Shown: piece after piece, positions 24,050 to 54,461 of the stretch | How positions within the stretch are numbered: position 1 is the first letter of the stretch | Layout of the letters: each line of letters starts with the position of its first letter | IMG/VR virus record: IMGVR_UViG_3300033148_006010 | Span: 1 to 55,554 of that record | Strand: one strand, 5' to 3' | DNA length: 55,554 nt | Source of the DNA: a virus | Taxonomy: Duplodnaviria; Caudoviricetes | Program-made: the position numbers and the translations under genes | Notes under the pieces: generated by a model | What the model was told of the DNA's origin: nothing | What the model saw: the letters and a program-made list of their open reading frames with translations, nothing else | Database searches by the model: none

Positions 24050-24050
24050 T

Positions 24051-25490: not shown

Positions 25491-25498
25491 GAGATATT

Positions 25499-26570: not shown

Positions 26571-27566
26571 ATGCAAACACCTGAACAGTTAATTGAAAAA
26601 GCGATAATTCAGACTGGGGATATGTCTGGAACTGGTGAAGGCGGTTTACTACAACCTGAAATAGCGAATAAATTTGTTGATTACGTTATTGACCTTTCGG
26701 TAATGACAAATAATGCGAGGATGGAAAAAATCACACCTGACCAGAAGTATATTGATAAGGTGGCAGTTGGAAGTCGTGTTGCAGAAGCTAAGTCACAAGC
26801 AACAACGACTACTACTCGTAGAGGAATATCTACTGAAAGAGTTACGATAACGTGTAAACAGATTATAGTTCCGTGGGAAATTTCAAAAGAAACTCTTGCT
26901 CGTAATATAGAAGGGGAAGCTTTTGAAGACCATGTAGCAAAAATGATGGCAACACAGTTGTCAAATGACTTGGAAGAGTTGTTTATTACTGGAGATACAG
27001 ACTCTAGCGATGCATTTCTTGCACTTACTGATGGTTGGGCTAAAGATGCTTCTGAAAATGGGCATATTTATGATGCAGAAAGAAAAGACCTTGATAGTGT
27101 TTCTGATGCTAAAACCGTATTCGGGAATATGATACGTTCTATGCCAAATAAGTTTAAGAGAAATCGTGCTAACCTTAGATTTTTTATGGGTACGAATGTT
27201 GCTCAAGACTACATTGATGCACTTTCAGCAAGAGCAACAACGCTTGGAGATAAGGCACTTTCCGAGAGATTCACGCTTACTCCGTTTGGTATAGAATTAG
27301 TTGAAGTTCCGACTATTCCGACTAATCTATCGTATAGTTCTCCGACGTATTCCGATAATTCGTATATATTGCTTACACATTATCAGAATTTGATAGTGGC
27401 TTTCGAGGTTCAGTATGCTGGCTCACAGTCAGGTATTGAATTATTGAAAGATAGGGATATATATAAGAATACACGGCAATATTGTTTACATCTGTCTGCG
27501 GATTGTGCGATACAAGAAGATGATGCTATTGTTTATGCAGAGAATGTTAAATCTGTATCTGGATAA
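26571..27566 (+). CDS. Major capsid protein (HK97 fold, XkdG/YqbE-like)
   Basis: GGLLQPE.ANKF, NIEGEAFEDH, NDLEELFITGDT, DGWAK motifs; position. Confidence 0.93.
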   Translation: MQTPEQLIEKAIIQTGDMSGTGEGGLLQPEIANKFVDYVIDLSVMTNNARMEKITPDQKYIDKVAVGSRVAEAKSQATTTTTRRGISTERVTITCKQIIVPWEISKETLARNIEGEAFEDHVAKMMATQLSNDLEELFITGDTDSSDAFLALTDGWAKDASENGHIYDAERKDLDSVSDAKTVFGNMIRSMPNKFKRNRANLRFFMGTNVAQDYIDALSARATTLGDKALSERFTLTPFGIELVEVPTIPTNLSYSSPTYSDNSYILLTHYQNLIVAFEVQYAGSQSGIELLKDRDIYKNTRQYCLHLSADCAIQEDDAIVYAENVKSVSG

Positions 27567-39643: not shown

Positions 39644-39886
39644 ATGGCTAATGATGTGTCAATGCCTCATACGCTTGCAAATGGAGAAGGGAATATTCCA
39701 GATGCAGATGAATTAAATGATAATTTTGATAAATGTAATGATAAAATTTATGTAAGTGCAACCGCTCCCACAAGTCCGTATGAAGGGCAAATGTGGTATA
39801 AAACAGGTGTCGCTATACAAATTGCATTAAGAGTTTACGATGGTTCAAATTGGTATTCACTTATGACAGGAGGGCAGGTAGAATGA
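39644..39886 (+). CDS. Short tail-fibre anchor-like protein
   Basis: ADELNDNF and SATAPTSPYEGQMWY...LRVYDGSNW motifs usually found in fibre N-terminal parts. Confidence 0.65.
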   Translation: MANDVSMPHTLANGEGNIPDADELNDNFDKCNDKIYVSATAPTSPYEGQMWYKTGVAIQIALRVYDGSNWYSLMTGGQVE

Positions 39887-40920
39887 AAAAATGTTTATTA
39901 GTTTTAGGGTTATTGCTCATAACTTCTAAAATTTGTGCATTAACACCTTATACAATAGAATATGATACTACTACAACACCGACTTCAATGATTCAAAGAA
40001 TGGCTGGAGAATTTCGCATAGGTAATTCTACAGTAACTTATACTGTATTATTTTCTAGCTATAGTTGTACTTTTGATAATACTGTTACTTTTAGTGTTCA
40101 AGGTACAGGTTCTTTTAATAATCTTACTGCTACAGGAACAATTACACTTCCTTCAGCAAGTTTAGATGGTGCTGATATTAAAAATGATGAGGTTACTGAT
40201 ACACAGCTACAATATAATACAGGACAACATTTAACTTCTGTAAGTACTCCTACATTTGCACAGATAGATACTGGTCAGGGTGCTACTGAGGTTTATGAAA
40301 TGAATCAAAATGTTACTACAACATCTACCCCTACTTTTTCAGGAGCATCTATTTCTTCTTTAACCATAACTGAAGCATTTACATTTCCATTATCAGATGG
40401 AATATCAAATCAATATATGAAAACAGATGGAGATGGAACTATTTCTTGGGCTTCATTAACGGGTATGTTATCAAATGGAACTACTACGAATAATTGCATA
40501 TATTGGGATGGTGCATCTTGGAGTGAAACAGATAGTTTACAAAATGCAGGAAGCGGTGGAGTAACAACGATAAATAGAGTATTGATTTCAAGTTCAATCG
40601 GAGATGCGACGCCTGTAGCAAATACCATCTATCAAGAAAGTTTAATAAAGGGTTGGATTCAGATGGATCAGATAGCAGGAACAATTACAAATAGTTTTAA
40701 TGTATCTAGTATTACAGACCACGGTGCGGGTGATTTCTCGATTATATGGGATACAAATTTTGCAAATGCCGCTTATGCCTGTGTTGCCACATCGCAGACT
40801 AAAGATTTTGCCACCATAATATCAATGGGTGTTGGTGATGTTCGAGTCAAGTCAATCAAAGACGACGGCTCGGCTACAGATAGAGCTATATTTTGTGTTA
40901 TAGCCATAGGAGATCAATAA
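39883..40920 (+). CDS. Tail-fibre-like protein with N-terminal signal peptide
   Basis: ATG 39883 in ATGA overlap with GGAGG RBS; MKKCLLVLGLLLITSKICA; two STPTF repeats; DG..NQYMKTDGDGTISW; C-terminal KGW...SFNVSSITDHGAGDF...FANAAY domain. Confidence 0.8.
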   Translation: MKKCLLVLGLLLITSKICALTPYTIEYDTTTTPTSMIQRMAGEFRIGNSTVTYTVLFSSYSCTFDNTVTFSVQGTGSFNNLTATGTITLPSASLDGADIKNDEVTDTQLQYNTGQHLTSVSTPTFAQIDTGQGATEVYEMNQNVTTTSTPTFSGASISSLTITEAFTFPLSDGISNQYMKTDGDGTISWASLTGMLSNGTTTNNCIYWDGASWSETDSLQNAGSGGVTTINRVLISSSIGDATPVANTIYQESLIKGWIQMDQIAGTITNSFNVSSITDHGAGDFSIIWDTNFANAAYACVATSQTKDFATIISMGVGDVRVKSIKDDGSATDRAIFCVIAIGDQ

Positions 40921-41291
40921 TGAAAAAATATATATTATTAGTTTGTTGTTTTTGTGCGTCTTTTTTGTCGGCTGAACATAAACTACTGCCGAAAGTTAGG
41001 GTATTCTGCAATCCAGACAATACTATTTCAGTTACATATTTTATAGATAAGGCAAAAAATGCAAATGAATCCGATTCGGAGTTCATGGATAGGGAAACCG
41101 AAGAAAACTTTTATGGGTTGCCTTATATAGATATGTATCCAAAAGATTTGCCATCCGGAGAAACAAGACATCAATGGAGATGGCGAGAAGTGAAAGGACA
41201 AAAAGAAATATGGATTGATACATCTATAGAGAAACCAAAATCTAAAATACAGCTTTTGGAAGAAAGAATCAAGGCATTAGAGGCGAAATAA
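40920..41291 (+). CDS. Fibre partner/chaperone-like protein with signal peptide
   Basis: TAATG coupling and AGGAG RBS; MKKYILLVCCFCASFLSA; DLPS...R..WRW motif; terminal coiled coil. Confidence 0.65.
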   Translation: MKKYILLVCCFCASFLSAEHKLLPKVRVFCNPDNTISVTYFIDKAKNANESDSEFMDRETEENFYGLPYIDMYPKDLPSGETRHQWRWREVKGQKEIWIDTSIEKPKSKIQLLEERIKALEAK

Positions 41292-41621: not shown

Positions 41622-42223
41622 TGGTTACAAAATATGTATTAAGAAATAAACCAAAATATATTATTATACATCATTCTTTAAGTCCTGATAAAAGTACGAG
41701 GGATTGGGAAGGATTAAGAAAATATCATTTAGAAAAAGGATGGTTAGATATAGGTTATCATTATGGATTTGAAAAAATAGATAAAAGTTATATGATAAGA
41801 ACAGGTAGACCCCAAAATGTAGAAGCGGCACATGCTTTAGGTTTTAATAATAAAAGCATAGGTATTTGTATCGTTGGTAATTTTGATTTAGAAACTCCTA
41901 TAAAAAAAGGATTTTTGTTTTCTTTAGGTTGTTTCGTAAGAGAATTACAACGTAAATATCAGATTAAAGCTAAAAACGTACTAGCACATAGAGAAACATA
42001 TCTTATTTTAGAAAAGGAAAATAGATTTGATATTTTAAAACGATTGGAATGGAAATCATGTTGTGGAAAATTATTTAGTATGACGAAATTTAGGGCTAGA
42101 TTAATTCAAAACAATCCTCATCAAAATTCGTTTAGTGAACAGGGCTTACTAAATGCATTATTTTATGATAAGGAATTAGAAGCACGAAATAAAATAATAG
42201 AGAATAAAGGAGTTAATATATGA
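41621..42223 (+). CDS. Endolysin, N-acetylmuramoyl-L-alanine amidase (Amidase_2 / T7 lysozyme-like)
   Basis: IIIHHS, DIGYHY, AHA.G.N..SIGIC.VGNF, HRE, KSCCG. Confidence 0.93.
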   Translation: MVTKYVLRNKPKYIIIHHSLSPDKSTRDWEGLRKYHLEKGWLDIGYHYGFEKIDKSYMIRTGRPQNVEAAHALGFNNKSIGICIVGNFDLETPIKKGFLFSLGCFVRELQRKYQIKAKNVLAHRETYLILEKENRFDILKRLEWKSCCGKLFSMTKFRARLIQNNPHQNSFSEQGLLNALFYDKELEARNKIIENKGVNI

Positions 42224-42756
42224 ATATACGATATATAATATATAGTATTTCGAATTCGATTTTACTTTTATTTTTACTTACTTTATGGGGGTGTGGGGGG
42301 AATAAAAGCTTACTTAATCCTGAACTTACTTTATTTAAAGCACAAGCTCAAAAAGATTTAGTAGCTGGGGTTAAAAATGAGGTTAAGGAAGTGAAGGCAC
42401 AAATGGATAGTTTGGTTAAGGCACAAGTTAATTTACAATCGCAGATAGATTCGGAAGTCGAAGCTAGATTTAATACTCAAGCTGGATTTAATAATAGGCA
42501 AGATGAAACGAATATACAATCTGGTAGAGATACGACTACAGTTACTAATGATACTAATTTAATGAAGTATATAATTTATGCCCTTAGTTCTTTATGTATG
42601 ACACTTATAATAGGGCTTATAACGTGCTTAAAGATGTTTATTAAGTTAGGCAAACGGAAAGACTTTTATAAAGAACAGACTTTGTTACATGCACAATCTG
42701 AAGAAGCGATTAAACAATTAAGAGAATTGCATGATTCATATATCAGTAAAAAATAA
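42220..42756 (+). CDS. Unimolecular spanin candidate
   Basis: Lipobox-like LWGC after a hydrophobic leader, coiled coil, C-terminal TM followed by basic residues; follows endolysin. Confidence 0.6.
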   Translation: MNIRYIIYSISNSILLLFLLTLWGCGGNKSLLNPELTLFKAQAQKDLVAGVKNEVKEVKAQMDSLVKAQVNLQSQIDSEVEARFNTQAGFNNRQDETNIQSGRDTTTVTNDTNLMKYIIYALSSLCMTLIIGLITCLKMFIKLGKRKDFYKEQTLLHAQSEEAIKQLRELHDSYISKK

Positions 42757-42759
42757 CGC

Positions 42760-42788
42760 TTGACAAGTATATTGAAATTTACTATAGT
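42760..42788 (+). promoter_or_regulatory. Sigma70-type promoter for the accessory operon
   Basis: TTGACA (42760-42765) - 17 bp - TATAGT (42783-42788). Confidence 0.8.
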
Positions 42789-42800
42789 AATATTACATTT

Positions 42801-43394
42801 ATGGGAAAAAAATATTTAACCCTTCCGAGTTTCCCTATAATCAAACCTGAAGAATTAAACCCTCTTGATGTTTGTTTTAATCTTGATACTAATAAGTTTA
42901 CAGCATGGGGAGAACATACTTTTAGGAAATATCCTTATAAGCAAGTTCCTACTCATGCTTATTTTCATATTAGGCATCAGATAATATTAAACGTAGGCCT
43001 ATGTGGAGTTTATATAGATTATCTTAGTACATATCTTAATAAGAGTCATGCAATATTAGTTATACATTTTAAAGATAGTGGTTGGAATATAGAAAATAAA
43101 TTAATTGACGTGTGTTTTCATGAATTTATAAAAAGCAAAAAATTATTACATTATGATTTTGGTGGTTATGGCAGTTTTATCCCGTTTTTAAATAAGATTT
43201 TTAAATCTAGTAAAAAGTTAGATTTTTGTAGTGATAATGTGGTTGATAATGGGCAAGCTGTAGAGTATAAATTTTTTAATGGTTTAGATAGCGAGCATAC
43301 TTCTCCTGCCGATTTATTATTAAGAGCGTTAAAATCTAATGATGATAATGTAGAAGTTAGATTATTAAAACCTAAAGGGGTTTATAATGGCTAG
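42801..43394 (+). CDS. Permuted papain-like NlpC/P60 enzyme (YiiX/YebB-like)
   Basis: His before Cys: PTHAY ... YDF ... FCSD ... SPADL. Confidence 0.7.
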   Translation: MGKKYLTLPSFPIIKPEELNPLDVCFNLDTNKFTAWGEHTFRKYPYKQVPTHAYFHIRHQIILNVGLCGVYIDYLSTYLNKSHAILVIHFKDSGWNIENKLIDVCFHEFIKSKKLLHYDFGGYGSFIPFLNKIFKSSKKLDFCSDNVVDNGQAVEYKFFNGLDSEHTSPADLLLRALKSNDDNVEVRLLKPKGVYNG

Positions 43395-44754
43395 AACAAG
43401 TCATAATGGTGATTTTTGGTTAAGAAATAATAACGAAAAATTGAATGACTTAAAACATTTAGTAAGAGTAGCTCCACAATTAAGTGATAGTCAATTAGCA
43501 CAACAATTAGGTAGTAATAAGCAAGCTATAAGGAGAGCAAGACAAAGATATAATATTTGGAGAGTAAGTAATAATCGAGCAGAAAGAGAAAATACAAATG
43601 GTATTCTTGTAGATAAACAACAAAATCATCTTATTGCTGATATAATAATAAAGTCTAAAAAAGGTAAAAAACCTACTATTAAAGATGCATTAAATAATCC
43701 AAAATTTAGAGAGATACTTAAAACTGGATGTATAGATTTAAATAAATATGAAATATCAAGATTTGTTACTAATAGTTGGGACGTTACAAATAGGAAAGGA
43801 GAAAGATTTACTAATTATCAGTTTAAAATATGGTGGACATTAAAAATTCCTAATATTCTTTTAAGTGTTTTTGAAGAAATAGAAAAAAATATAGCTAAAA
43901 AAAGTCAAAGTTGTAATAAAAAAATATACAATAAAAATGCAAAAAGAATGATTGAAATATCGTTATATGATTTACATTATGGAATGTTATCGTGGAGTAG
44001 AGAAACAGGAGAGGATTATGATTTAAAAATTGCTAGAAATGTATATGAAAATGCTATTAGTCAAATTATTGATAGAGTTAAAAATATAGAAGTAGATTAT
44101 TTTTTATTCCCTATAGGTAATGATTTTTTACATGTTAACAATATTACGAACAAGACTCCGACAGCAGAACACTCACTTGATGTAGATAGTAGATTAGTGA
44201 AAATTATATCTGAATCAGAATATATGTTAAGAGATAGTATTAATCAGTTAAAAAAAATTGCTCCTGTGAAATTGTTTTGGGTTCCTGGAAATCATGATCC
44301 ACAAACAAGTTATTATTTATTAAGAATGTTAGGTAATTTTTTTCATAATGATATCAATGTAGAGGTTGATACAAGTCCTAAGCCTCGTAAATACAAAGTA
44401 TATGGTAAATGTTTAATTGGATTTATGCATGGATGTACTGAATCAAATAGAAAAAATTGGGCTTTAATGATGGCAGATGAAGAGCCTGATTTGTGGAAAT
44501 CAGACCAGTATCGTGAAATACATACAGGGCATCAGCATAGAAAAAATGAATTAGTTTATCATTCTGCATCTACTCATGGTGGAGTTACAATAAGGATTAT
44601 TCCTTCAATTTGTGCTACGGATTTTTGGCATTATACTAAAGGTTTTACGAAAACTTCCAAAACTGCACAATTCTTTGTATGGAATAAAGATTATGGATTA
44701 GAAAGTATTCAAGATATTCATATCAGAATGGATTTATATAAAAAGAAAAAATAA
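43387..44754 (+). CDS. HTH + calcineurin-like metallophosphoesterase
   Basis: N-terminal SDSQLAQQLG HTH; DLHYG, GND, PGNHD, HG, GHQH. Confidence 0.88.
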   Translation: MARTSHNGDFWLRNNNEKLNDLKHLVRVAPQLSDSQLAQQLGSNKQAIRRARQRYNIWRVSNNRAERENTNGILVDKQQNHLIADIIIKSKKGKKPTIKDALNNPKFREILKTGCIDLNKYEISRFVTNSWDVTNRKGERFTNYQFKIWWTLKIPNILLSVFEEIEKNIAKKSQSCNKKIYNKNAKRMIEISLYDLHYGMLSWSRETGEDYDLKIARNVYENAISQIIDRVKNIEVDYFLFPIGNDFLHVNNITNKTPTAEHSLDVDSRLVKIISESEYMLRDSINQLKKIAPVKLFWVPGNHDPQTSYYLLRMLGNFFHNDINVEVDTSPKPRKYKVYGKCLIGFMHGCTESNRKNWALMMADEEPDLWKSDQYREIHTGHQHRKNELVYHSASTHGGVTIRIIPSICATDFWHYTKGFTKTSKTAQFFVWNKDYGLESIQDIHIRMDLYKKKK

Positions 44755-44757
44755 TAT

Positions 44758-45048
44758 ATGAAAACTGTTTTAGAGATAGAACAGACTCTGCCTCGAAATA
44801 AAAATGAAATTGAATCTAAAGGTGGTAATTATAGCGACCTTGAAAGTTCAGGACTTATACAGCATAAAATTTGGATAGATGAAACAAAAGATATTTATGA
44901 ACGAATAGATAGTATATATCATGAATTTACGCATTTCTTATATTCTTTTTTTGAGTTAGAAGAACCAGTTTGTTATAATGCAGGCCAAAAAGCGGCGGAA
45001 GAATTTAAAAAACATGTAGCAAGATTAAGACGTGAGAGGAAAAAATGA
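44758..45048 (+). CDS. Small HEXXH metallopeptidase-like protein
   Basis: IWID...SIYHEFTH...EE. Confidence 0.6.
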   Translation: MKTVLEIEQTLPRNKNEIESKGGNYSDLESSGLIQHKIWIDETKDIYERIDSIYHEFTHFLYSFFELEEPVCYNAGQKAAEEFKKHVARLRRERKK

Positions 45049-45710
45049 AAGTTAGTATTGTTATGCCTACTTATAATATGCAAAATACAATAGATAGGGC
45101 TATTGATAGTATTATTAAACAAACTTATAAAGACTGGGAATTAATAATTGTTAATGATGGCAGCATAGATTATACTGATGATTTAGTAAAAGAATATATA
45201 GAAAAAGATAATCGAATAAGATTGTGTTCTTTATATCAAAATCAAGGAAGGGCAAATGCTTATAATATAGGTATCGTTCAAGCTAAAGCCGATTTAATAG
45301 CAATTCATAATGCTGATGATGTTTATTATCCTAAGAAAATTGAAAAGCAAATTGTAATATTCACATGGAATAAGATTTTAGATGTTTTAGGTACAGGGTT
45401 AAAAATACCAAAATACAATAAGAAAGAAATTGCCCCTCATCAAGTAACTGCCGAGATATATAAACATATGATGATTAATCATGCTACTATAATGTTCAAG
45501 AAAAAGTGGTTTTATAAAGTAGGTGGTTATGATACTAAATTTAAAAGATGTGTAGATTGGGATTTTTGTTGTAAGTTATTTGATGCTGGAGCTGTAATGC
45601 AAAGTATAAATACTATTTTGTATGTTTGGTATCCGAATATAAATACAGATGGATATAATGAATCGGTTGATGCTGTAAGAAAAAAATGGGAGTATAAGAC
45701 AAAAAAATGA
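45045..45710 (+). CDS. GT2 glycosyltransferase
   Basis: VSIVMPTYN, VNDGS, NADD, GGYD, DWDF. Confidence 0.93.
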   Translation: MKVSIVMPTYNMQNTIDRAIDSIIKQTYKDWELIIVNDGSIDYTDDLVKEYIEKDNRIRLCSLYQNQGRANAYNIGIVQAKADLIAIHNADDVYYPKKIEKQIVIFTWNKILDVLGTGLKIPKYNKKEIAPHQVTAEIYKHMMINHATIMFKKKWFYKVGGYDTKFKRCVDWDFCCKLFDAGAVMQSINTILYVWYPNINTDGYNESVDAVRKKWEYKTKK

Positions 45711-46360
45711 AATATCCTATTGGAATTGTTGTCGTAGCGGTTAATATAGAAGATAAAATTAGAACTAGGTTTAGAGATATTTTATATTCTAGTTCTTCTT
45801 TATATATGGATTGGATATGTACGGTTCGTTATTGGGAAGAATATAGTATGAATATTGATGGATTGCTTAATAAAAGTGAAGCACTTAATGATGGAATTAC
45901 GAGATTGCGAGATGAATGCGAAATTATAATTTGCACTGATATAGATATGCTTATACCGCCTCAATTAATTGAATATACTTATGAAATGTTAAAAGTTCCT
46001 AATAATACTAATTTGTGGATTCCCGCTAGGAATATAGATGAAGATAAAATTACACCTATTGAATGGGATAAATGGAAAAAATTGCCTTTGCGTATGAGTG
46101 GTACAGGTAGTTTTAATGCTATGCGAACAGAAGATTGGATTGAAAGCGGAGGATGGGATGAACGATTTATAGGATGGGGAGGAGAAGATGATTTTTTTAA
46201 ATTACAAAGAGAACATTTTGGAATTAAAACTATTGTAAGTACTGATTTTCCTTTGATGCATGTTAATCATTTGCCTAGACAAAATAAACAAGCATTAAAT
46301 GGTATTAACAAAAATGTTTTAGAGATAAGATTAAAAGAAGGATTTAAAAAATGGTTATAA
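45707..46360 (+). CDS. GT-A glycosyltransferase (GT2/GT7-like)
   Basis: NKSEALNDGI, TDID, GGWDERFIGWGGEDD, HVNH. Confidence 0.88.
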   Translation: MKYPIGIVVVAVNIEDKIRTRFRDILYSSSSLYMDWICTVRYWEEYSMNIDGLLNKSEALNDGITRLRDECEIIICTDIDMLIPPQLIEYTYEMLKVPNNTNLWIPARNIDEDKITPIEWDKWKKLPLRMSGTGSFNAMRTEDWIESGGWDERFIGWGGEDDFFKLQREHFGIKTIVSTDFPLMHVNHLPRQNKQALNGINKNVLEIRLKEGFKKWL

Positions 46361-47040
46361 ATCCTAATCATAATTACGTTACTTTTTTTGTATGTTTGCA
46401 ATGTCAAAGGCATTGCTCTGAATGTAGTCAACAACCTTTAATGAATTGGAAGCCTAAATATCAAATGAGTTTAGAAGAAATAGAAAAGTTTATTAAAGTT
46501 ACTAAAGATTCTGGCTATGATAAATTTAAATGGATTATAATATCTGGTGGAGAACCGTTATTGTGGAATAATTTAGAGGAAGGATTATCTTTATTAAAAA
46601 AATCTAAGATTGCTAATGCTATCAAAATTTTTAGTAATGGAATCAATGTATCTAAAATTACATATAAAGTATTGATTAATTCTAGTGTAATAAGGGTATC
46701 ACAATATAAAGAAAATTGGCAAATATTACAAGATTTAAAAAGACAATATAAAAACAAAATAGAAATTGTTGATAGAACTGTTCATACTAAACTACCTACT
46801 AAATTGTATGATAATGTTTTACCTGCTAAATGCCATTGTCAAGGTTATGCTGTTTGTGATAATAAGATTTATGCTTGTCCTATGATACCTGCTATTTGTC
46901 GTAAATTAAATTTTGATATAGAATATTTTTGTCCTATTATTCCTCATTGGGTAGAAGCATTAGATTTATTTAATAGGGAAAATGAATATGTTTGTCAAGG
47001 ATGTATAGGTAATTTAAAAGTTAGAGAAAAAATAAAATGA
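46351..47040 (+). CDS. Radical SAM enzyme with C-terminal Cys-rich (twitch/SPASM-like) region
   Basis: CQRHCSEC, SGGEPLL, SNG; later CHC...YACP...CQGC. Confidence 0.9.
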   Translation: MVINPNHNYVTFFVCLQCQRHCSECSQQPLMNWKPKYQMSLEEIEKFIKVTKDSGYDKFKWIIISGGEPLLWNNLEEGLSLLKKSKIANAIKIFSNGINVSKITYKVLINSSVIRVSQYKENWQILQDLKRQYKNKIEIVDRTVHTKLPTKLYDNVLPAKCHCQGYAVCDNKIYACPMIPAICRKLNFDIEYFCPIIPHWVEALDLFNRENEYVCQGCIGNLKVREKIK

Positions 47041-47606
47041 ATATAAAAGAACAAGCAAAAAAAAATTTATTAGATTTTAAACAAGTAGCAGATGAATTAA
47101 AAATTCCTTTTTTTCTACAGGCGGGAACATTGTTGGGAGCATATAGAGATAAGGACTTTGTTAAGGGAGATGAAAGTGATTGTGATTTAGGTATTTTAGA
47201 ATGTTATTATAAGCGTATTCATGAATTAATGATTACATTGAAAGCAATAGGGTTTAAAGTATCTTATATTTTTAGATTTGAAAATGCTATTGAAAGTGTT
47301 AAATTTGAAAGAGGACAAAATCATCTTGATGTTCTTAGTATACATATTAGAGGGAGTAGGGCATTTAATTTAGGTAGAAGTTTTGGTTCTCATGGATTAC
47401 CCTCTATTTTTGCATATACTTTTTCATCGGCTTGTTTTATAATATTTGAAAAATTAAAGTTTCTTGGTACAGAATTTGATGTACCTTATCCAACTGAAAT
47501 GTATTTAAATGATAAATATAGAGATTGGAGAGTTCCTGTTTCAAGAGAAAAATATGATTATTTAGATGTTAAACAAGCACCTTGTATAAATAATACTGAT
47601 TGGTGA
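47037..47606 (+). CDS. LicD-family nucleotidyltransferase-fold phosphotransferase
   Basis: GTLLGAYRD..F...E.D.DLG; FLG..F.VP...E.YL...Y.DW..P. Confidence 0.88.
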   Translation: MNIKEQAKKNLLDFKQVADELKIPFFLQAGTLLGAYRDKDFVKGDESDCDLGILECYYKRIHELMITLKAIGFKVSYIFRFENAIESVKFERGQNHLDVLSIHIRGSRAFNLGRSFGSHGLPSIFAYTFSSACFIIFEKLKFLGTEFDVPYPTEMYLNDKYRDWRVPVSREKYDYLDVKQAPCINNTDW

Positions 47607-48125
47607 TATCCAAAATGAAAAAAATAATATATGCAACAATTTGGGGAGAAGAAAAAATATCCCTTCCTACAGAACTTCCTATTTTATATAGCTATCCTTA
47701 TTCAATTAATTTACCTAAACATGTTGTTAAATCTACTTTATTTGATGCGTTATCTCATGCTAGATGCGTTATCTCATGCTATAGAAGCATTTTGGGCCAA
47801 TGATGCTACAGATGAAACAAAGAGATATTCAATTATAGCTATATCATTAATAAGACAATATTTAAATTATTGTTAAGAAGGTTGGCTATTGGTTGAAGCA
47901 GGAAACTATGCAGGTAGAGCTATAGCTTTAACTCGTACAAATATAGTTCATTCTACATCATATAATCTTACAATTAATTATGGCATAGAACATGGTACGG
48001 CATGTAGTATTTTATTACCTGATATTGTTAGTTATATGAATAATAAAGAACTGCCAATATTTTTTGGTTTAAAAAATACTCAAGAATTAGTTTGTTATCT
48101 AAGATTATTGAGGGATTCTTTATGA
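47600..48125 (+). pseudogene. Decayed iron-containing alcohol dehydrogenase, HEPD/phosphonoacetaldehyde reductase-like
   Basis: Three fragments join as YATIW...KISL...DALSHAIEAFW...AGRAIALTRTNIVHSTSYNLTINYGIEHGTAC; 19-bp tandem duplication 47744-47781; in-frame TAA 47874-47876; N-terminal NAD-binding part missing. Confidence 0.85.
47744..47781. repeat. Exact 19-bp tandem duplication GATGCGTTATCTCATGCTA x2
   Basis: Read directly; causes the frameshift in the Fe-ADH gene. Confidence 0.97.
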
Positions 48126-49084
48126 TAAATAAAATTGCAATTATATCTTATACAAGTAGACAAGAGGGATGTCTTTCCGGAGTAGAAAGATTTAATTGGT
48201 ATTTACAAAAAGCAATTGGTGGAAAAATATATACTGGAACAATGTTTAAAATGCCTAGTCCTCAGGCTTTAAATGCTGTTTTACAACATGAAGGATTAAT
48301 AGATGAAGAAACTTTATGTATAGTAGATGGTTCTTGGGGACTTGGAATAGATGTTGGTATTCTTGTTATAAGTGTTGTTCATGGTACTTGGGCGGAATTT
48401 AATTTAAGAAATCACAAGAAACATATTGAAGATAAAGACCAAGATAATATGTGGCATAGGCCTAATACAAAAATGGTTGCTGTATCAAATGCATCTGCTA
48501 AATATCTTTTAAAACATCATAAAGTTAAAGCGGATAAGATTATTTTAAATGGAGTTGATACAAATATTTTTAAACCTATTGAGCATAAACAAGTTAATCA
48601 TAAACCTGTTGTATTACATTGTGGTAGGGATTATAATAAAGATGGTGGTGGAAAATTACAACAAATTAAAGAGATGTTAAAAGATAAATTTCATTTTAAA
48701 TTATTGAATGTTAAGGACGGCGAAGAAATAAAAGTATTTCAACATTCTGATATAGTTTTACAATGTTCAAAATATGAAGGTAATTCTTATTTTATGCTTG
48801 AAGGAATGGCTTGTGGTTTACCTGTTGTTGCAAGCAGGGCTGGACTTTTTGAAGAAAAAACAATTTGTGGATATAAAAGTTTTAAGGGATTATTAGGAGA
48901 TACTTTAGAATATGATGCTAATGTTGATGAATTTGTACAAGCTATTGAAAGCGTTTATGAAAATAATAAGAAATATAATTATGGACAAAATTGTAGAAGG
49001 TGGATTTTAGAAAATGCTACATTTGAAATTTTTGCAAATCAATGGAAGGAATTTATAGAAGGAAATTATGGATTTAAAGTTTAG
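48122..49084 (+). CDS. GT4 (GT-B) glycosyltransferase
   Basis: SGVERF, VAVS, NGVDTNIF, YEGNSYFMLEGMACG.PVV (EX7E); ATG 48122 in ATGA overlap. Confidence 0.92.
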   Translation: MINKIAIISYTSRQEGCLSGVERFNWYLQKAIGGKIYTGTMFKMPSPQALNAVLQHEGLIDEETLCIVDGSWGLGIDVGILVISVVHGTWAEFNLRNHKKHIEDKDQDNMWHRPNTKMVAVSNASAKYLLKHHKVKADKIILNGVDTNIFKPIEHKQVNHKPVVLHCGRDYNKDGGGKLQQIKEMLKDKFHFKLLNVKDGEEIKVFQHSDIVLQCSKYEGNSYFMLEGMACGLPVVASRAGLFEEKTICGYKSFKGLLGDTLEYDANVDEFVQAIESVYENNKKYNYGQNCRRWILENATFEIFANQWKEFIEGNYGFKV

Positions 49085-49781
49085 TTGTGTTATTTTGACT
49101 TATAACAGAAAAGATGTTTTGAAAAAATGTTTACTTGCTGTAGCAGAAAATACTTATGAGCGTAGATGTAATTATGAAGTTATTGTTGTTAATAATTGTT
49201 CTAATGACGGAACATTAAAATTGCTTGATATTATGGGCGGACAGTTTGATAATTACAAAGTTCTTAATCTTAATAGAAATTATGGTGTTATTGCTCGTAA
49301 CAGAGCATTTAATCTTGCACGTGGGAAGTATATAGTTCAAATAGATGATGATGTTTTAGTTCAAAAAAATTGGGATAAAGAAGTTTTTAAATATTTTAGA
49401 AATCCTCAGGTTGGAGCAGTAGGAACGGAAGGGTCAAAATGGATAGGTTGGGTAAACAAGCATAATAAAGATATAAAAATAGGTGATTATGTAGATTTTC
49501 TTACTGGACAATTTTGGGTATTTAAAAATGAGAGTTGGTTATACGATGAAAGTTTTGGACATTTTTGGCACGAAGAATCTGATTTACAAATGTGGATGAA
49601 ATATAGAAAGAAATATAGGTTTTGTCAATGTAATAGAAATGTTATTAGGCATTTAGAATTAAGAAGCGAAAAGACAATGGATTGGAAGTTGCATGATAAA
49701 AATTGGCAGATGTTTGTTGATAAATGGAAGCCGAGAGAAAATCAATTAAATCTAGAGGGAAAAAATGCAAAGGTATTATAA
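49068..49781 (+). CDS. GT2 glycosyltransferase
   Basis: VILTYNR, VNNCSNDGT, NYG...RN, IDDD, EESDL. Confidence 0.92.
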   Translation: MDLKFSCVILTYNRKDVLKKCLLAVAENTYERRCNYEVIVVNNCSNDGTLKLLDIMGGQFDNYKVLNLNRNYGVIARNRAFNLARGKYIVQIDDDVLVQKNWDKEVFKYFRNPQVGAVGTEGSKWIGWVNKHNKDIKIGDYVDFLTGQFWVFKNESWLYDESFGHFWHEESDLQMWMKYRKKYRFCQCNRNVIRHLELRSEKTMDWKLHDKNWQMFVDKWKPRENQLNLEGKNAKVL

Positions 49782-49908
49782 TTTAGATTATTTTTTAAGA
49801 CCAGATGTTTATTTAAAAGTACATGAAGCTTATTGGAAGAGCCATAAAATTAAAAGATTTTTTAGAAATTTAATGATATTATGGTATATAATTAGAGGGA
49901 AAATATGA
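49765..49908 (+). CDS. Small hypothetical protein (47 aa, not in ORF track)
   Basis: GAGGG RBS, ATG 49765, ATGA overlap with the next gene. Confidence 0.55.
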   Translation: MQRYYNLDYFLRPDVYLKVHEAYWKSHKIKRFFRNLMILWYIIRGKI

Positions 49909-50864
49909 AAAAAATATTATTTGTATCACACGGATTTGCCTGTTTTATGTCAGACATATTATTCCATGGTTTAAAAAAATCAGGTTACGATGTTACTGAA
50001 TACCCTCAAGGAACTCATTATTATGGTGGAGATAGTGTGTTTGCAGGCAGGAAAAACTTAGGTAAGAATGATTTTTTAAACTTTTGTTATTTTGATTTTT
50101 CTAGAAAACAGTTGTCAGATGAAGAAATATTAAATCAAGATTATGATGCTGTTATAATTACTTCTTGGGTACCAGAAAAACCATGGATATTAGAAAATAT
50201 TTATAAGCGTTTTAAAGGTAAAATTCCTATTGCATTTGTGGATGGAGAAGACGATAAAATAATTAGAAAAAGAGAATTTTATAATGATATTTATTTTAAA
50301 AGAGAAGCTTGTAATAATGAAAATGTTAAACCTATTACGTTTGGTATTATAGATAAATATGAATTTGATTTAATAGATTATAATAAAAAACATTATGATT
50401 TAAGCTTTATCGCATCTGGACATAATATAAATAGTTTAAGATGTCAAATGTTCAGATTTTTAAAACAAGAAAAGAATGATAAAATATTTTATATGGATGT
50501 TGAAAGAGATAAAAGAGGTATGTTGTCTTACGCAGAGTATTTCAATGTTTTACGCAATTCAAAAATTGGTATTAGTATAGAAGGGGAAGGATATGATACA
50601 TATCGTTATTGGGAAGTTCCTTATTTTGGGGCAATGCTTATAGCTGATATGCCTAAAATAGATATATCTAATAATTTCATTGATATGGAAAGTGCTGTAT
50701 TTTTTAAAAACATTATGGATTTTCAAGATAAATTTAATTTCTTAAAAAAGAATCCCTTAAAAATAAAACATATTGCTGAACAAGGATATCAACATTTAAT
50801 GAAATATCACACGTCTAAAAACAGGGCTCAATATGTTATAAACGAATTGGAGAAAATAAAATGA
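49905..50864 (+). CDS. GT-B glycosyltransferase (Glyco_trans_1_2 / CgeB-like)
   Basis: DGED, YFKRE, Y...LRNSKIGIS..G.GYDTYRYWE...G, IAEQG...H. Confidence 0.82.
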   Translation: MKKILFVSHGFACFMSDILFHGLKKSGYDVTEYPQGTHYYGGDSVFAGRKNLGKNDFLNFCYFDFSRKQLSDEEILNQDYDAVIITSWVPEKPWILENIYKRFKGKIPIAFVDGEDDKIIRKREFYNDIYFKREACNNENVKPITFGIIDKYEFDLIDYNKKHYDLSFIASGHNINSLRCQMFRFLKQEKNDKIFYMDVERDKRGMLSYAEYFNVLRNSKIGISIEGEGYDTYRYWEVPYFGAMLIADMPKIDISNNFIDMESAVFFKNIMDFQDKFNFLKKNPLKIKHIAEQGYQHLMKYHTSKNRAQYVINELEKIK

Positions 50865-51631
50865 TAGATATTGTAATAGTAAATTATAATTATGGTAAAT
50901 ATATAATACCTTTATTAAATTCATTACTTAAATGTCAAGATGTGTCTTTTATAAATCAAACCATAACAGTTGTTGATAATAAATCTAAAGATGATTCTGT
51001 TCAATTAATTACTGATTGGCTTTATAATAAAGATTTTTCGTGTAATTTAATTATGTCTGAAAATAAAGGTTATGCTCATGCTGTTAATTTAGGGGCAAGA
51101 ATTAATAAAAGTAAATATATCATGATTTTAAATGCAGATATGCTTGTTTTGGATAGTTTTTGGAAAGAGAAATTTATAGATACATTTGAATCAGAGAAAA
51201 ATATTGCAGTTGTAGGGTGTAAATTAATTGACCAGTTTAAAAAAGTTGTTGGTGCGGGTACTATGGGTACATTTCAACGTAGACAATTTAGAGCTTATGG
51301 TGTGAACGATTCTGCGATTCCTAGCGATATTTTTAATCAACCTGCAGATTGTATTAATGTTTGTGGTGCGGCTTATATGGTTCGTCGTGATATATTTGAA
51401 AAGCTTGGAGGTTTTGATGAAGATTTTTTTATGTATTATGAAGAAGAATTTTTTTCAATTAAGGTTCAAAAATTGTTAGGAATGAAAGTTAGATATATAC
51501 CTTATACAACATTTTTACATTATTCAAATCCGTCCGGAAAGTTTAATAACGAAAATCGTTATCAAAGAATATCAGGTAAAACTTTCATAAGGAAATGTAA
51601 AGAAATAGGAATACAGGGGGTTCAGGTATGA
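50861..51631 (+). CDS. GT2 glycosyltransferase (rhamnosyltransferase-like subgroup)
   Basis: IVIVNYN, VDNKSKDDS, NKGYAHAVNLG, LNAD, GGFDEDFFMYYEE. Confidence 0.93.
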   Translation: MIDIVIVNYNYGKYIIPLLNSLLKCQDVSFINQTITVVDNKSKDDSVQLITDWLYNKDFSCNLIMSENKGYAHAVNLGARINKSKYIMILNADMLVLDSFWKEKFIDTFESEKNIAVVGCKLIDQFKKVVGAGTMGTFQRRQFRAYGVNDSAIPSDIFNQPADCINVCGAAYMVRRDIFEKLGGFDEDFFMYYEEEFFSIKVQKLLGMKVRYIPYTTFLHYSNPSGKFNNENRYQRISGKTFIRKCKEIGIQGVQV

Positions 51632-52332
51632 GTATAATAGGTGCGTGTGTGGTTTATAATAATCAACATATTTTTCATAAACCATTAGAAACATTTAGAG
51701 CTTTATGTGATAAAATAATTATAGTAGATGATTGTTCTGGATTTTTTTATAAAGGAATGATTCAAAAATATTATAATAAGAATAATTGGCGAGTATATGC
51801 ATTAGGCAAAAAAACGAAGAAAGAAATTGAAAGACGTTCTAAATTATGGAATTTAATTTGTGAAGATAGTACTGAAAATGATTGGATTGTTTTGCTTGAT
51901 TCAGATGAATCTTATCACGAAAAAGACTGGAAGCATTTGTTAGATTTAATGAATCAATATAAAAACGATGACCATATACGATATATTGCTACTAGATTAT
52001 ATAACATGTGGAGCGAAACGGAATATAGAATAGATGGTTACTGGAATCCTAAATTTGAATTAAAAAGGCGAATTTTTAAACTTAAAAAAGGAGATTATGT
52101 GCCTAGAAATTTTAATCCGAATATTATAGAATGTGGCGAAGTTCCTAGTTATGTTTTCGGATTAAGTGGTATAAATACGGAATGTAAATTGCTTCATTGG
52201 GGCTATGTTTTACCCAAAGAAAGACAGCGTAAATACGAATTTCATAAAAAAGTAGACCCTGAAGGAAAATTTCATTTATCTTCTCATATAGACAGTATAA
52301 TTCAAAAACCTACATTGACGACATTGACATGA
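51628..52332 (+). CDS. GT-A glycosyltransferase (GT2-like)
   Basis: IIVDDCS, WIVLLDSDE, LLHWGY. Confidence 0.85.
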   Translation: MSIIGACVVYNNQHIFHKPLETFRALCDKIIIVDDCSGFFYKGMIQKYYNKNNWRVYALGKKTKKEIERRSKLWNLICEDSTENDWIVLLDSDESYHEKDWKHLLDLMNQYKNDDHIRYIATRLYNMWSETEYRIDGYWNPKFELKRRIFKLKKGDYVPRNFNPNIIECGEVPSYVFGLSGINTECKLLHWGYVLPKERQRKYEFHKKVDPEGKFHLSSHIDSIIQKPTLTTLT

Positions 52333-53462
52333 AAAAAATAGCATTAATTAATCCTGCAAGTTCTTTTTTAGTTCATGATGGAGATAGACCACCTTTAAAT
52401 CTTGCTTATCTTGCTACAAGTGTTAGGCAATCACACGATATAAAAATTTTTGATTTTTCTATAAATAATCATTTAAAATTACTCAGAGAAATTAGAAAAT
52501 ATAATCCTGATATTATTGGATATACTGCTACTACTCCTACTTTTCCTGAAACTGTAAGATTATTAAAAGAAATATCGGTTATTGTACCGACAGCTATAAA
52601 TGTTATCGGTGGTGTCCATGCTACAATTATGCCTAAATATTGTTTAAAATGGTTTGATTATGTAATTATAGGTGAAGCTGATTTTAGTTTTAAGAAATTT
52701 TGTAGCGAAGAAAAACCGAAAGATAGAATTATTAAATCTGATACGATATATAAAATTGATGGACTATTACCAGCACGAGATTTATTGCCTATGAATAAGT
52801 ATAACATGCAATTAGATAACGAAAAATGTACAATTATAATTACTTCAAGGGGATGCCCTTATGGATGTATTTATTGTAGTTCGATTGCTGGTAAAAGAGT
52901 AAGATTAAATAGTGCCGAAAATGTTGTTAATGAAATTGGTGATATAATGAGTAAATATAATTATAGAAGTTTTTATTTTCTTGATGATATATTTACTATA
53001 GATAGATTTCGGGTATTTGAAATTTGTAGATTAATAAGAGAAAGAAAATTGAATATTGAATTTAGAATTACTACTAGAATTGATTTAGTTGATAAGGTTA
53101 TGTTAAATGTTTTAAAAGCATCTGGTTGTAAAATGATTTGTTATGGTTTAGGATCTGGTTCCGATAGAATGTTAAAATTTTATAATAAGAAATTTCAAGT
53201 ACAAGATATTAAAAGAGTTGTTAATATGACTAAACAAGTTGGCATTGAAATAAAAGGGTTTTGGATGCATTCTAAATATGAAAATATAGAGGATGGAAAC
53301 GATACTGATAGTCTTATAAAGGAATTAAATTTAAAAGAAAATGGCATATACGATTTAGTTGTATATCCAGGTTCTGAATTGTGGCGAAGGGAAATGAAAA
53401 ATATAGAGCCAGATATTCAATATTTTGAAAAATTATATCATGGAGGAAAGAATAATGCGTAA
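52329..53462 (+). CDS. Cobalamin-binding (class B) radical SAM enzyme
   Basis: PPLNLAYLA, GGVHAT, GEAD, TSRGCPYGCIYC, FLDDIF, YPGSELW. Confidence 0.92.
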   Translation: MKKIALINPASSFLVHDGDRPPLNLAYLATSVRQSHDIKIFDFSINNHLKLLREIRKYNPDIIGYTATTPTFPETVRLLKEISVIVPTAINVIGGVHATIMPKYCLKWFDYVIIGEADFSFKKFCSEEKPKDRIIKSDTIYKIDGLLPARDLLPMNKYNMQLDNEKCTIIITSRGCPYGCIYCSSIAGKRVRLNSAENVVNEIGDIMSKYNYRSFYFLDDIFTIDRFRVFEICRLIRERKLNIEFRITTRIDLVDKVMLNVLKASGCKMICYGLGSGSDRMLKFYNKKFQVQDIKRVVNMTKQVGIEIKGFWMHSKYENIEDGNDTDSLIKELNLKENGIYDLVVYPGSELWRREMKNIEPDIQYFEKLYHGGKNNA

Positions 53463-53586
53463 GGAAACTATTTTGGATTATATTTGTCCAAAATGCGGTT
53501 ATAATAGGTGGAAAACTGTAATTAAAGGTAAAAAATATCAATGTAGAAACAAGAATTGTAATTATATTAAGGAGATGAAACGATGA
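53455..53586 (+). CDS. Small zinc-ribbon protein (43 aa, not in ORF track)
   Basis: GGAGG RBS; CPKCG...CRNKNC; ATGA overlap with the next gene. Confidence 0.6.
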   Translation: MRKETILDYICPKCGYNRWKTVIKGKKYQCRNKNCNYIKEMKR

Positions 53587-54365
53587 GCAGGGTTTTACTT
53601 ATAGCAGGTGGATATAGGTTAGGCGACAGTTTCCATCTTATTCCTATATTACGCAAATTAGCTCAAAAACATGATGAAATAACATGGATTACTGGAGAAT
53701 ATGCTAGAGAAGTATCTACCTTTTTAGCTTCTGTTTCGAATTTAAAAATTAAACATTTAAGAATTATGAGTGAGTATAGAAAACCTGGAGACATAACAGA
53801 CAGGGAACGATTTGTTAATCATATATTTTATAATGATGGTAGGAATAGAGATGAAATAAATCCTAAACAATTTGATGAAATAGTAACAGATGTTCGCTGT
53901 AGTTTTGAAATTGCTTATAATTATAAAGGTTATATTGGTAATTATCCAGAATTAACTACTATTGATTTACTTATTGAAAAAAAATCTTTACCTTATATAT
54001 GTGTTCAACCTGATAGTATATCAAAACAGAAATCTATAAAAAGTTTAGTAAATCTTGATTATCCTTTACGCACTTATACTTTGGGTTGTAAAAATGAATT
54101 GCTAGTTTTTAAATCGCAAGATGCTAGACAAATTCCGTATGAAGAATCTATGAAATTGCTTTATCAGTCAAGATTTAATGTATGTATTCATTCTAGTTTT
54201 GCATGTGCAAGTTTTTACTTTAATAAGCCTACAATTATTATCCATTTTTTTAATGGGCAGTTCAAATTTGGCAAGTTTCATAATAACTGTTTAGACCTTG
54301 TAACTCCTACAGGAAAACAGATAGAACAAGCTATGAGAGAATACGCTGAAAAATACAAGTCTTAA
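53583..54365 (+). CDS. Divergent GT9-like glycosyltransferase
   Basis: RLGDSFHLIPILRKL start, YICVQP, CIHSSFACAS...KPTIII. Confidence 0.7.
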   Translation: MSRVLLIAGGYRLGDSFHLIPILRKLAQKHDEITWITGEYAREVSTFLASVSNLKIKHLRIMSEYRKPGDITDRERFVNHIFYNDGRNRDEINPKQFDEIVTDVRCSFEIAYNYKGYIGNYPELTTIDLLIEKKSLPYICVQPDSISKQKSIKSLVNLDYPLRTYTLGCKNELLVFKSQDARQIPYEESMKLLYQSRFNVCIHSSFACASFYFNKPTIIIHFFNGQFKFGKFHNNCLDLVTPTGKQIEQAMREYAEKYKS

Positions 54366-54432: not shown

Positions 54433-54461
54433 TTGACAATAAATGGTATATGTACTATACT
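54433..54461 (+). promoter_or_regulatory. Sigma70-type early promoter
   Basis: TTGACA (54433-54438) - 17 bp - TATACT (54456-54461). Confidence 0.85.

Follow-up and report, generated by a model that had tools for sequence, protein, structure and literature searches.

What a bacteriophage could do with ten glycosyltransferase (GT) domains is the question raised by the IMG/VR virus record IMGVR_UViG_3300033148_006010, a linear sequence of 55,554 bases that was analysed over its full length (hereafter the window). Eight of these domains are encoded in a 9.3-kb gene cluster at 45045-54365. The other two, a GT9 and a GT2 domain, are joined in one enzyme encoded at 27682-29604, directly 3' of the major capsid gene (Table 1). 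The explanation we favour, with a probability of roughly 0.45, is that these two gene sets serve the phage to glycosylate its capsid inside the host cytoplasm. This reading is based on the synteny of the capsid gene and the GT9-GT2 gene, the co-occurrence of this enzyme with a threonine run on the capsid protein, a four-cysteine (Cys4) finger resembling that of TibC, and a survey of viral loci.

The capsid-linked enzyme combines an N-terminal GT9-like domain (residues 1-395; PF01075 at 4.5e-9) with a C-terminal GT2 domain (PF00535), which confirms the total of ten GT domains given in an earlier interpretation of the bare sequence (the original prediction). Full-length homologues are 61-63% identical to it, and forms of about 910 aa add a second GT9 domain. 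The best solved match of the GT2 part is chondroitin synthase (2z87). The gene order recurs in contig L163, the one close relative retrieved with this slot. Its capsid protein is 86% identical, and terminase, portal, MuF, protease, scaffold, capsid and GT9-GT2 genes (the last 62% identical) follow each other up to the contig end. In L166, whose capsid protein shares 68% identity, a 106-aa open reading frame (ORF) and then the adaptor come next to the capsid gene, with no GT. There is likewise no GT after the capsid gene in two contigs of Synergistaceae metagenome-assembled genomes, whose capsid proteins are 33% identical and too distant for naming the host. As the GT occupies this slot in L163 and is absent from the other contigs, it is an insertion specific to one sub-lineage.

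The Atlas clusters nearest to the GT9 domain are 86-100% viral, and those nearest to the small radical S-adenosylmethionine (SAM) enzyme of the 9.3-kb cluster (46351-47040) are 63-89% viral, which speaks against a recently captured host lipopolysaccharide (LPS) gene. A tblastn search of the GT9-GT2 protein against 50,697 phage records matched 97 of them, none over 80% of the query. A predicted complex of the GT9-GT2 protein with the capsid protein scored 0.05, where the mark is 0.32; this counts neither way.

The GT9 domain ends in a Cys4 finger (C345, C348, C359 and C368; C-x2-C-x10-C-x8-C), and the four cysteines are conserved in all seven of the seven full-length homologues. The profile of the protein matches TibC (4rb4) at 2.5e-8. 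In the solved-structure search the CSPCW motif of the domain aligned with TibC residues 339-343, including Cys339 and Cys342, at an overall E-value of only 0.02, and the alignments with WaaC stopped short of this motif. The iron finger of TibC (Cys339, 342, 358 and 370) has been described as a unique insertion that TibC requires to assemble and to recognise its protein substrate (PMC4358343, available text). As presented there, TibC and AAH have a GT9-related GT-B domain that acts on a folded cytoplasmic protein and carries the Cys4 finger after its C-lobe. The phage enzyme shares the GT9-related GT-B domain and has a putative finger of similar pattern, in which the first CxxC aligns with TibC residue for residue. 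However, its finger loops are shorter than those of TibC (C-x2-C-x15-C-x11-C) and, unlike TibC, it is fused to a GT2 domain. It also scores below the autotransporter heptosyltransferase family TIGR04414 (32.5 bits against a cut-off of 200) and below the LPS heptosyltransferase equivalog TIGR02193 (42.7 bits against 185.3). We take the finger as a sequence resemblance to TibC, not as family membership.

Residues Thr78-Thr82 of the capsid protein (nt 26802-26816) are the only run of at least five threonines among the 63 ORFs of the window, and a five-threonine run arose in 2 of 2000 shuffles of this protein. An AlphaFold2 model (pLDDT, the predicted local confidence, of 73), with Foldseek matches to HK97-fold capsids, places the run in the disordered tip (residues 66-86) of a hairpin (59-93) that precedes the spine helix and that is, by this model, the E-loop. 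E-loops are exposed on HK97-type capsids. The protein has no C-terminal extension. Among 34 aligned capsid proteins, the pattern TTT[ST]T stands at the loop tip in eight, namely that of the window and P0301-P0307 (72-88% identity). At this position L163, which has the GT, reads ATTTST, whereas L166, which lacks it, reads ATDPET; the remaining, more distant capsid proteins have ATDPxT, AVKVTE or unrelated residues. Furthermore, the capsid homologue P0307, with the run, and the GT homologue P0183 each come from a single Logan contig of 12,890 bases, probably one and the same. In these sequences the presence of the capsid-linked GT tracks a poly-Thr E-loop tip, and Thr78-Thr82 is proposed as a candidate O-glycan acceptor site.

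In the proposed mechanism the capsid-linked enzyme would start the glycan on Thr78-Thr82 at the exposed loop tip. Its GT9-like domain would recognise the capsid protein via the Cys4 finger, which is placed like the substrate-binding iron finger of TibC, and the fused GT2 domain would add the next sugar. With nucleotide sugars of the host as donors, the eight soluble GTs of the 9.3-kb cluster would then lengthen the chain and introduce branches. A phospho-alcohol group may be attached by a LicD-like enzyme, and two radical SAM enzymes would tailor a sugar by deoxygenation or C-methylation. The link between the capsid-linked GT and the cluster, the acceptor, the order of the steps and the sugars are all proposals. 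The most specific form of this reading is a glycan of eight to ten sugars on the E-loop threonines, perhaps phospho-substituted, tailored by radical SAM enzymes and started by a phage-specific GT9 that would recognise the folded capsid protein by means of a TibC-like metal finger. We consider it possible but doubtful. If true, it would be the first capsid hyperglycosylation outside actinobacteriophages and the first with radical SAM sugar chemistry, and the threonine patch would be the first defined internal acceptor motif co-evolving with its enzyme.

It is improbable that the enzymes act on a different cytoplasmic acceptor, such as another virion protein, a host protein or a small molecule. 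The fibre-like protein (39850-40920) could be taken for such an acceptor, with its 26% Ser plus Thr and its TTTT and TTTST runs, and the tail tube of mycobacteriophages is also glycosylated according to the available part of PMC11600133. The signal-peptide-like start of the fibre-like protein, however, fits poorly with modification in the cytoplasm, and this protein shows no synteny with a GT.

The survey of viral loci was built on the B12-radical SAM enzyme of the cluster (52329-53462). IMG/VR loci with a more distant homologue of this enzyme formed 39 clusters at 60% identity, and representatives of 23 were annotated over a neighbourhood of 7 kb; L033, L039 and 14 lower-scoring clusters were left out. 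A GT lies within 7 kb in 20 of the 23 loci (the exceptions are L010, L016 and L045), and a head or packaging gene in seven (L002, L008, L018, L023, L025, L032 and L037). Sugar genes stand directly beside the capsid or portal gene in L002, L008, L032 and L037. Flippase, O-antigen polymerase and priming phosphotransferase families were matched in none of the 23 loci, and one match to 'Polysacc_synt_C' fell on a 140-aa cupin-like ORF in L021. SAM methyltransferases are frequent and are accompanied by more radical SAM enzymes; genes of nucleoside diphosphate (NDP)-sugar synthesis are present as well (GDP-mannose-dehydratase-like, DegT, GLF, NeuB and CMP-transferases). L017 resembles the present set, with a GT2-TPR protein, GT4, GT9, two CgeB-type GTs, a B12 enzyme and a methyltransferase, and L022 contains a LicD-like ORF. 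The survey suggests that clusters of soluble GTs and B12-radical SAM enzymes, often with SAM methyltransferases and with no export genes, are widespread in uncultured phages.

Two of the surveyed loci have features of their own. L008 (952-11583) encodes an intein-bearing portal fused to MuF, and 3' of its capsid gene a 1350-aa protein with a B12-binding radical SAM C-terminal half, followed by two methyltransferases and a GT4. On L026 (6980-18443), a viral contig of 203 kb, a nonulosonic-acid set consisting of NeuB, a CMP-transferase, two DegT aminotransferases and a GT29 sialyltransferase-like protein surrounds the B12-radical SAM gene.

The 9.3-kb cluster encodes eight soluble GTs, of which five are GT-A enzymes, one is a GT4, one is CgeB-like and one is GT9-like. 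Pfam and NCBIfam profiles were used for annotation, and an AlphaFold model with Foldseek for the protein of 53583-54365. The DXD-type, EX7E and radical SAM cysteine motifs were read off the sequences with definitions from general knowledge; the former two and both radical SAM cysteine triads are intact. The gene content had been anticipated by the original prediction, which listed the same GT classes, a LicD phosphotransferase, a radical SAM enzyme, a B12-radical SAM enzyme and the relic of an iron-dependent alcohol dehydrogenase (Fe-ADH). All of these were recovered by profile or fold, the LicD-like protein weakly. Its match to PF04991 reaches 22.9 bits at a cut-off of 22.6 and covers only positions 3-46 of the 227 profile positions, and a D-x-D is readable. 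The phospho-substitution of the glycan that had been predicted hangs on this marginal match over 44 of 227 positions. For the GT2 at 45045-45710 the nearest NCBIfam models are EpsE and TuaG, both under their cut-offs, and the true start of the GT4 is probably the ATG at 48122. No SAM methyltransferase family was matched in 45045-54365 or beside the capsid gene. The cluster and the remainder of the record have equal GC content. A search for sequencing runs or RNA data containing 45045-54365 listed none.

The genes were said to be all translationally coupled. This applies to seven junctions, which overlap by 4-17 nt, but gaps of about 120 nt at 49781/49905 and 53462/53583, together with the Fe-ADH relic, break the series. 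Of the relic only part of the C-terminal domain is left and the N-terminal domain is gone; its end overlaps with the GT4 gene. The frame is shifted by an exact 19-bp tandem duplication at 47743-47780, and an in-frame TAA follows at 47874-47876. The duplication is a fresh-looking lesion within an otherwise compact operon. The best NCBIfam model of the relic is TIGR03405, a phosphonate-type (phosphonate-pathway) Fe-ADH, and this suggests descent from a cellular polysaccharide locus that may formerly have made its own phospho- or phosphono-alcohol donor.

The B12-radical SAM enzyme has the domain hallmarks of the cobalamin-dependent (class B) radical SAM methyltransferases, an N-terminal B12-binding domain and a radical SAM core with CxxxCxxC. 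Its closest solved relative is AprD4 (6fd2, at 2.6e-34), a sugar diol-dehydratase; deoxygenation is therefore as likely as methylation, and the methylated glycan raised by the original prediction is not implied. Close homologues are 55-61% identical. L083 keeps the order GT-A, B12 enzyme, GT9-like (69, 56 and 73% identity) and L082 keeps the first two genes; in both, C-terminal pieces 57-69% identical to the GT-A of 51628-52332 precede the B12 gene. These three genes therefore form a conserved module. L082 and L083 are short contigs and were the only close relatives of the B12 enzyme retrieved by the metagenome scan. Single-protein scans of viral contigs with the GT9-GT2 protein and with the B12 enzyme found no locus beyond the record itself, and a scan with an alignment of the B12 enzyme found relatives at 20-36% identity only.

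That the last gene of the module (53583-54365) is GT9-like, as had been predicted, was borne out by its model (pLDDT 95.9). The best Foldseek matches are the GT9 enzymes WaaC (2gt1, E 2.4e-7), then 3tov (a Veillonella GT9), 1psw (WaaF) and TibC. The likeness is at the level of the fold only, and no NCBIfam model, including the WaaC and WaaF equivalogs, was matched. The family is rare, with 60 representatives among 1.84 billion proteins, some of which are fusions that carry two GT2 domains, a sulfotransferase or SAM methyltransferases; no homologue was found in cultured phages. We also considered whether the protein arose by fission, as the former third domain of the ~910-aa GT9-GT2-GT9 homologues, and rejected this, as only general GT9 kinship was seen. 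The start of its gene is overlapped by the 53-aa ORF at 53425-53586, and the GT9-like protein itself is without the Cys finger of the capsid-linked GT9 domain.

The original prediction had argued for a soluble glycan on a cytoplasmic acceptor, most plausibly the virion, from the lack of membrane parts. The observations behind this argument are correct. No 19-residue segment in the cluster is membrane-helix-like, and the top Kyte-Doolittle values of 1.80 and 1.66 belong to strands of Rossmann type in the GT4 and in the B12 enzyme. Neither flippase, polymerase, priming, Gtr-type nor NDP-sugar families were found in the window ORFs of at least 80 aa. In the comparison with GtrABC, the PHROG matches to GtrB-like proteins were restricted to the first ~100 residues, which are the GT2 domain, and no membrane-helix-like segments were seen. 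GT9, GT4 and GT2 enzymes of the LPS core and of undecaprenyl-linked intermediates (Waa-type) also work at the cytoplasmic face of the membrane and have no membrane segments. Because of this, the argument fails to separate the virion from such host targets, although its conclusion is the best-supported one after testing.

The two gene sets could thus have split targets, with the GT9-GT2 enzyme acting on the capsid and the 9.3-kb cluster remodelling a host envelope glycan by way of the host priming enzyme and flippase. The substrate would be the LPS or lipooligosaccharide (LOS) core, or an undecaprenyl-linked intermediate, on the cytoplasmic side of the membrane, and the change would serve to exclude superinfecting phages or to prevent progeny from sticking to debris. 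We regard this as unlikely. Its position after the lysis genes, the usual place of accessory genes, next to the SbcD-type nuclease and with a promoter-like site of its own, would fit such a role of the cluster, yet in the survey analogous viral clusters lie among head genes in 4 of 23 loci and contain a membrane component in none. Core oligosaccharides are assembled and decorated with phosphocholine by enzymes of the GT9, GT4, GT2 and LicD types, all of which can do without a membrane segment. Among NCBIfam models, those closest to the GT2s describe enzymes of exopolysaccharide and teichuronic-acid synthesis, but every match to a cellular equivalog is far under its cut-off. The phosphonate-type dead Fe-ADH hints at ancestry in a cellular polysaccharide locus; against split targets stand the mostly viral families of the small radical SAM enzyme and the GT9, and the GC content, which does not differ from that of the rest of the record. 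The host looks diderm, which would also suit this alternative. However, no integrase or repressor was found in the window by PHROG and Pfam scans, so lysogenic conversion is not indicated.

Hypermodified phage DNA is a still less probable target than any of the above. In this case a modified base would carry the glycan made by the GTs, as known from phages with glycosylated 5-hydroxymethylcytosine (5hmC) or 5-hydroxymethyluracil (5hmU). According to the available part of a preprint (bioRxiv 10.1101/2023.12.21.572611), 5hmC receives mono- to trisaccharides, some with heptose, from GT-A and GT-B enzymes of phages, and about 65% of the GT-bearing viral contigs are without a nearby base-modifying gene. 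The SbcD-like nuclease that adjoins the cluster, and a record that may be incomplete, could also be read in this direction. Against it, the window ORFs of at least 80 aa gave no match to a TET/5mYOX, thymidylate-synthase-type hydroxymethylase or C5-methyltransferase, in a record estimated as 52% complete, and the original prediction had likewise noted the lack of a base-hydroxylating enzyme. The sole DNA methylase of the window is an N6/N4 enzyme, one of the GTs is linked to the capsid gene, and ten GT domains are far above any DNA glycan in the accessible part of that preprint.

Several points weigh against glycosylation of the capsid by both gene sets. The evidence for any acceptor is indirect. 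By profile score the GT9 domain is no closer to TibC than to WaaC or WaaF, and only the Cys finger separates them. The association with the threonine run consists of three positives, one of them inferred from the matching 12,890-base contigs, and one negative; the positives are close kin and may represent one evolutionary event. A distance of 15 kb separates the cluster from the capsid gene, and it stands after the lysis genes, beside the SbcD/Mre11-like nuclease (phrog_704) and behind a promoter-like site of its own, which does not imply late co-expression with the capsid gene. None of the relatives retrieved tells whether the cluster and the capsid-linked GT occur jointly or separately. With a host that looks diderm, GT9, GT4, GT2 and LicD make up an enzyme set of the LPS/LOS core, for which no phage flippase would be needed. 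Among cultured phages a homologue of the B12 enzyme (24% identity) was seen in Streptomyces phage SF3 (L226, 8875-11449) only, and there its neighbours are a thymidylate kinase and a NUDIX gene, with no annotated GT, which runs counter to the survey. Finally, the record is possibly only half of a genome by CheckV.

The system had been called undescribed, which was an overstatement, as multi-GT cassettes between capsid and connector genes and virion glycosylation by phage GTs are both in print. Cluster J mycobacteriophages carry 8-10 genes, five of which encode GTs, between the capsid and connector genes (gp11-gp19 in Thibault), as published in 2013 (PMC3706429). The available text of that paper describes the same slot as that of the GT9-GT2 gene, the capsid-connector interval that recurs in L163. 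It also describes several GTs (five in Thibault), chondroitin-synthase-type two-domain GTs and fused tailoring domains, as found here, where 2z87 is the best GT2 match. It reports SAM methyltransferases and a Ser/Thr kinase, and in the part accessible no radical SAM, LicD or GT9 enzyme. In contrast to Cluster J, most of the genes described here are in a second locus after the lysis genes, and the host is probably diderm instead of an actinobacterium. No sequence relationship to the mycobacteriophage GTs was found, in that no mycobacteriophage is among the ten organism groups listed for the 97 records matched by the GT9-GT2 protein. Small ORFs with a protein-kinase domain, as in the Cluster J insertion (PMC3706429, available text), were also seen within viral GT/methyltransferase clusters on L162 (6466-7110) and L059 (15615-16274).

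Virion glycosylation by phage GTs has been reported for cluster F and O mycobacteriophages (PMC11256854, PMC11600133). In the accessible parts of these reports, the GT genes of cluster F are near the right genome end, as is the 9.3-kb cluster here. The cluster F and O phages have two to four GTs and an O-methyltransferase, compared with ten GT domains, two radical SAM enzymes and a LicD-like protein in the window. Their glycans are reported at subunit C-termini, whereas the candidate site here is the tip of an internal E-loop. No counterpart was found in 45045-54365 or beside the capsid gene for the SAM-dependent O-methyltransferase that is the partner in the actinophage cassettes; radical SAM enzymes are present instead. 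The study of Freeman et al. (2023, Cell Host Microbe) on cluster F and O virions is said to show that soluble phage GTs modify proteins of both capsid and tail tube in the cytoplasm.

A protein of chlorovirus PBCV-1 (Q89398) was among the fold matches. In PBCV-1 a virus-encoded, cytoplasmic, multi-domain GT machinery equips the major capsid protein with a complex, tailored glycan and does not draw on membrane pathways of the host. It differs from the present case in being a eukaryotic virus with another capsid fold, whose glycans are N-linked and which uses SAM methyltransferase domains in place of radical SAM enzymes.

The locus is most likely a larger version of the capsid-glycosylation trick known from mycobacteriophages. 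New features are the division over two loci, the count of GT domains, a LicD-like gene next to a dead Fe-ADH, the finger resembling that of TibC and the threonine patch that co-occurs with the capsid-linked enzyme. Searching the literature, with Freeman et al. 2023 and its supplements outside the search, we found no radical SAM step, LicD-like enzyme or E-loop acceptor for phage virion glycosylation. On phage heptosyltransferases and virion glycosylation in metagenomes only the DNA-glycan preprint came up, and among the papers listed for capsid glycan shields the one that concerns phage virion glycosylation is the announcement of mycobacteriophage Maravista. Virion glycosylation has so far been shown for a few mycobacteriophages only, and the locus offers a testable acceptor site, a five-threonine E-loop patch that appears together with the capsid-linked GT9-GT2 enzyme. 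If capsid glycosylation holds true, glycan coats would be a general phage trait that extends to phages of diderm hosts, the GT9 domain would represent a new protein-glycosylating branch, and the radical SAM sugar-tailoring enzymes would be usable for glyco-engineering.

Table 1. Position and assignment of features in the window.
Position	Strand	Feature	Basis or remark
1-16 kb	+	Replication/recombination genes: primase, helicase, N6/N4 DNA methylase, PD-(D/E)XK exonuclease, RecT-like	PHROG/Pfam
16599-17087	+	OmpA-family domain protein	Before terminase
17068-19683	+	Large terminase with intein	Intein_splicing at residues 434-757, HNH_3 endonuclease domain
Between terminase and capsid gene	+	Portal, MuF-like protein, XkdF-type protease (22223-23794), scaffold (25847-26515)	PHROG/Pfam
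26571-27566	+	Major capsid protein	phrog_1623 at 2e-82
27682-29604	+	GT9-GT2 glycosyltransferase, 640 aa	PF01075, PF00535
3' of 27682-29604	+	Adaptor, tail tube, tape measure and distal tail genes	PHROG/Pfam
39850-40920	+	Fibre-like protein, 26% Ser plus Thr	TTTT and TTTST runs; signal-peptide-like start
40893-41291	+	132-aa ORF after fibre-like protein	Signal-peptide-like hydrophobic start
41361; 41621	+	Holin-like protein; amidase	PHROG/Pfam
42220-42756	+	178-aa protein with lipobox (LWGC) and C-terminal hydrophobic anchor, like a unimolecular spanin	After amidase
42760-42788	+	Promoter-like site before unit 42801-54365	11/12 consensus positions
43387-44754	+	SbcD/Mre11-type nuclease, 455 aa	phrog_704 at 1e-68
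45045-45710	+	GT2 (GT-A)	PF00535 at 4e-32
45707-46360	+	GT-A, beta4GalT-like	Weak: PF02709 (Glyco_transf_7C) at 1.5e-5; DID and GEDD motifs
46351-47040	+	Small radical SAM enzyme, 229 aa	PF04055, PF13353; CxxxCxxC; Cys-rich C-terminal part
47037-47606	+	LicD-like nucleotidyltransferase-fold protein, putative phospho-alcohol transferase	Weak: PF04991, NF045866 at 8.5e-7
47600-48125	+	Fe-ADH pseudogene remnant	PF25137 fragments 47631-47876 and 47889-48125
48092-49084	+	GT4	PF00534, PF13692, phrog_2170; EX7E motif
49068-49781	+	GT2 (GT-A), DDD motif	PF00535 at 6e-23
49905-50864	+	CgeB-type GT-B (Glyco_trans_1_2)	PF13524 at 4e-14
50861-51631	+	GT2 (GT-A)	PF00535 at 4e-18
51628-52332	+	GT-A, DSD motif, first gene of the conserved three-gene module	Weak: PF00535 at 8e-7
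52329-53462	+	B12-binding domain plus radical SAM enzyme	PF02310 at 7e-19, PF04055 at 5e-16; CPYGCIYC
53425-53586	+	Small 53-aa ORF, CxxC...CxxC zinc-ribbon pattern	phrog_2945 at 7e-5
53583-54365	+	Compact GT9-like GT-B	No Pfam/NCBIfam match; AlphaFold pLDDT 95.9 plus Foldseek
54433-54461	+	Promoter-like site opening the next unit	11/12 consensus positions

The layout of the record is of the siphovirus type by PHROG and Pfam scans, with a GC content of about 29% and every gene on the plus strand. No tRNA genes or terminal repeats were found in the record. There is no close cultured phage, the capsid protein being at most 34% identical to those of cultured phages (Streptomyces phages). The protein with lipobox and anchor at 42220-42756 and the OmpA-like domain at 16599-17087 suggest that the host is a diderm of low GC content.

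The promoter-like sites did not exceed, in the total of the whole scan, the number found in shuffled sequence. The SbcD/Mre11-type nuclease is directly upstream of the sugar genes and the junctions overlap or nearly abut, so that repair and glycan genes are in one apparent unit. A role of the nuclease as a metallophosphatase of the glycan cluster, as might be drawn from L017, was rejected; it has no similarity to the L017 protein and is of the SbcD/Mre11 type instead.

The terminase homologue of L163 is uninterrupted at the intein site and is therefore intein-free. Between the protease and the scaffold, four ORFs of 84, 91, 387 and 107 aa (23795-25789) have no counterpart in L163, and two of them open with signal-peptide-like segments. 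The 132-aa ORF that follows the fibre-like protein could encode a superinfection-exclusion lipoprotein beside the receptor-binding genes, by analogy with Llp of phage T5.

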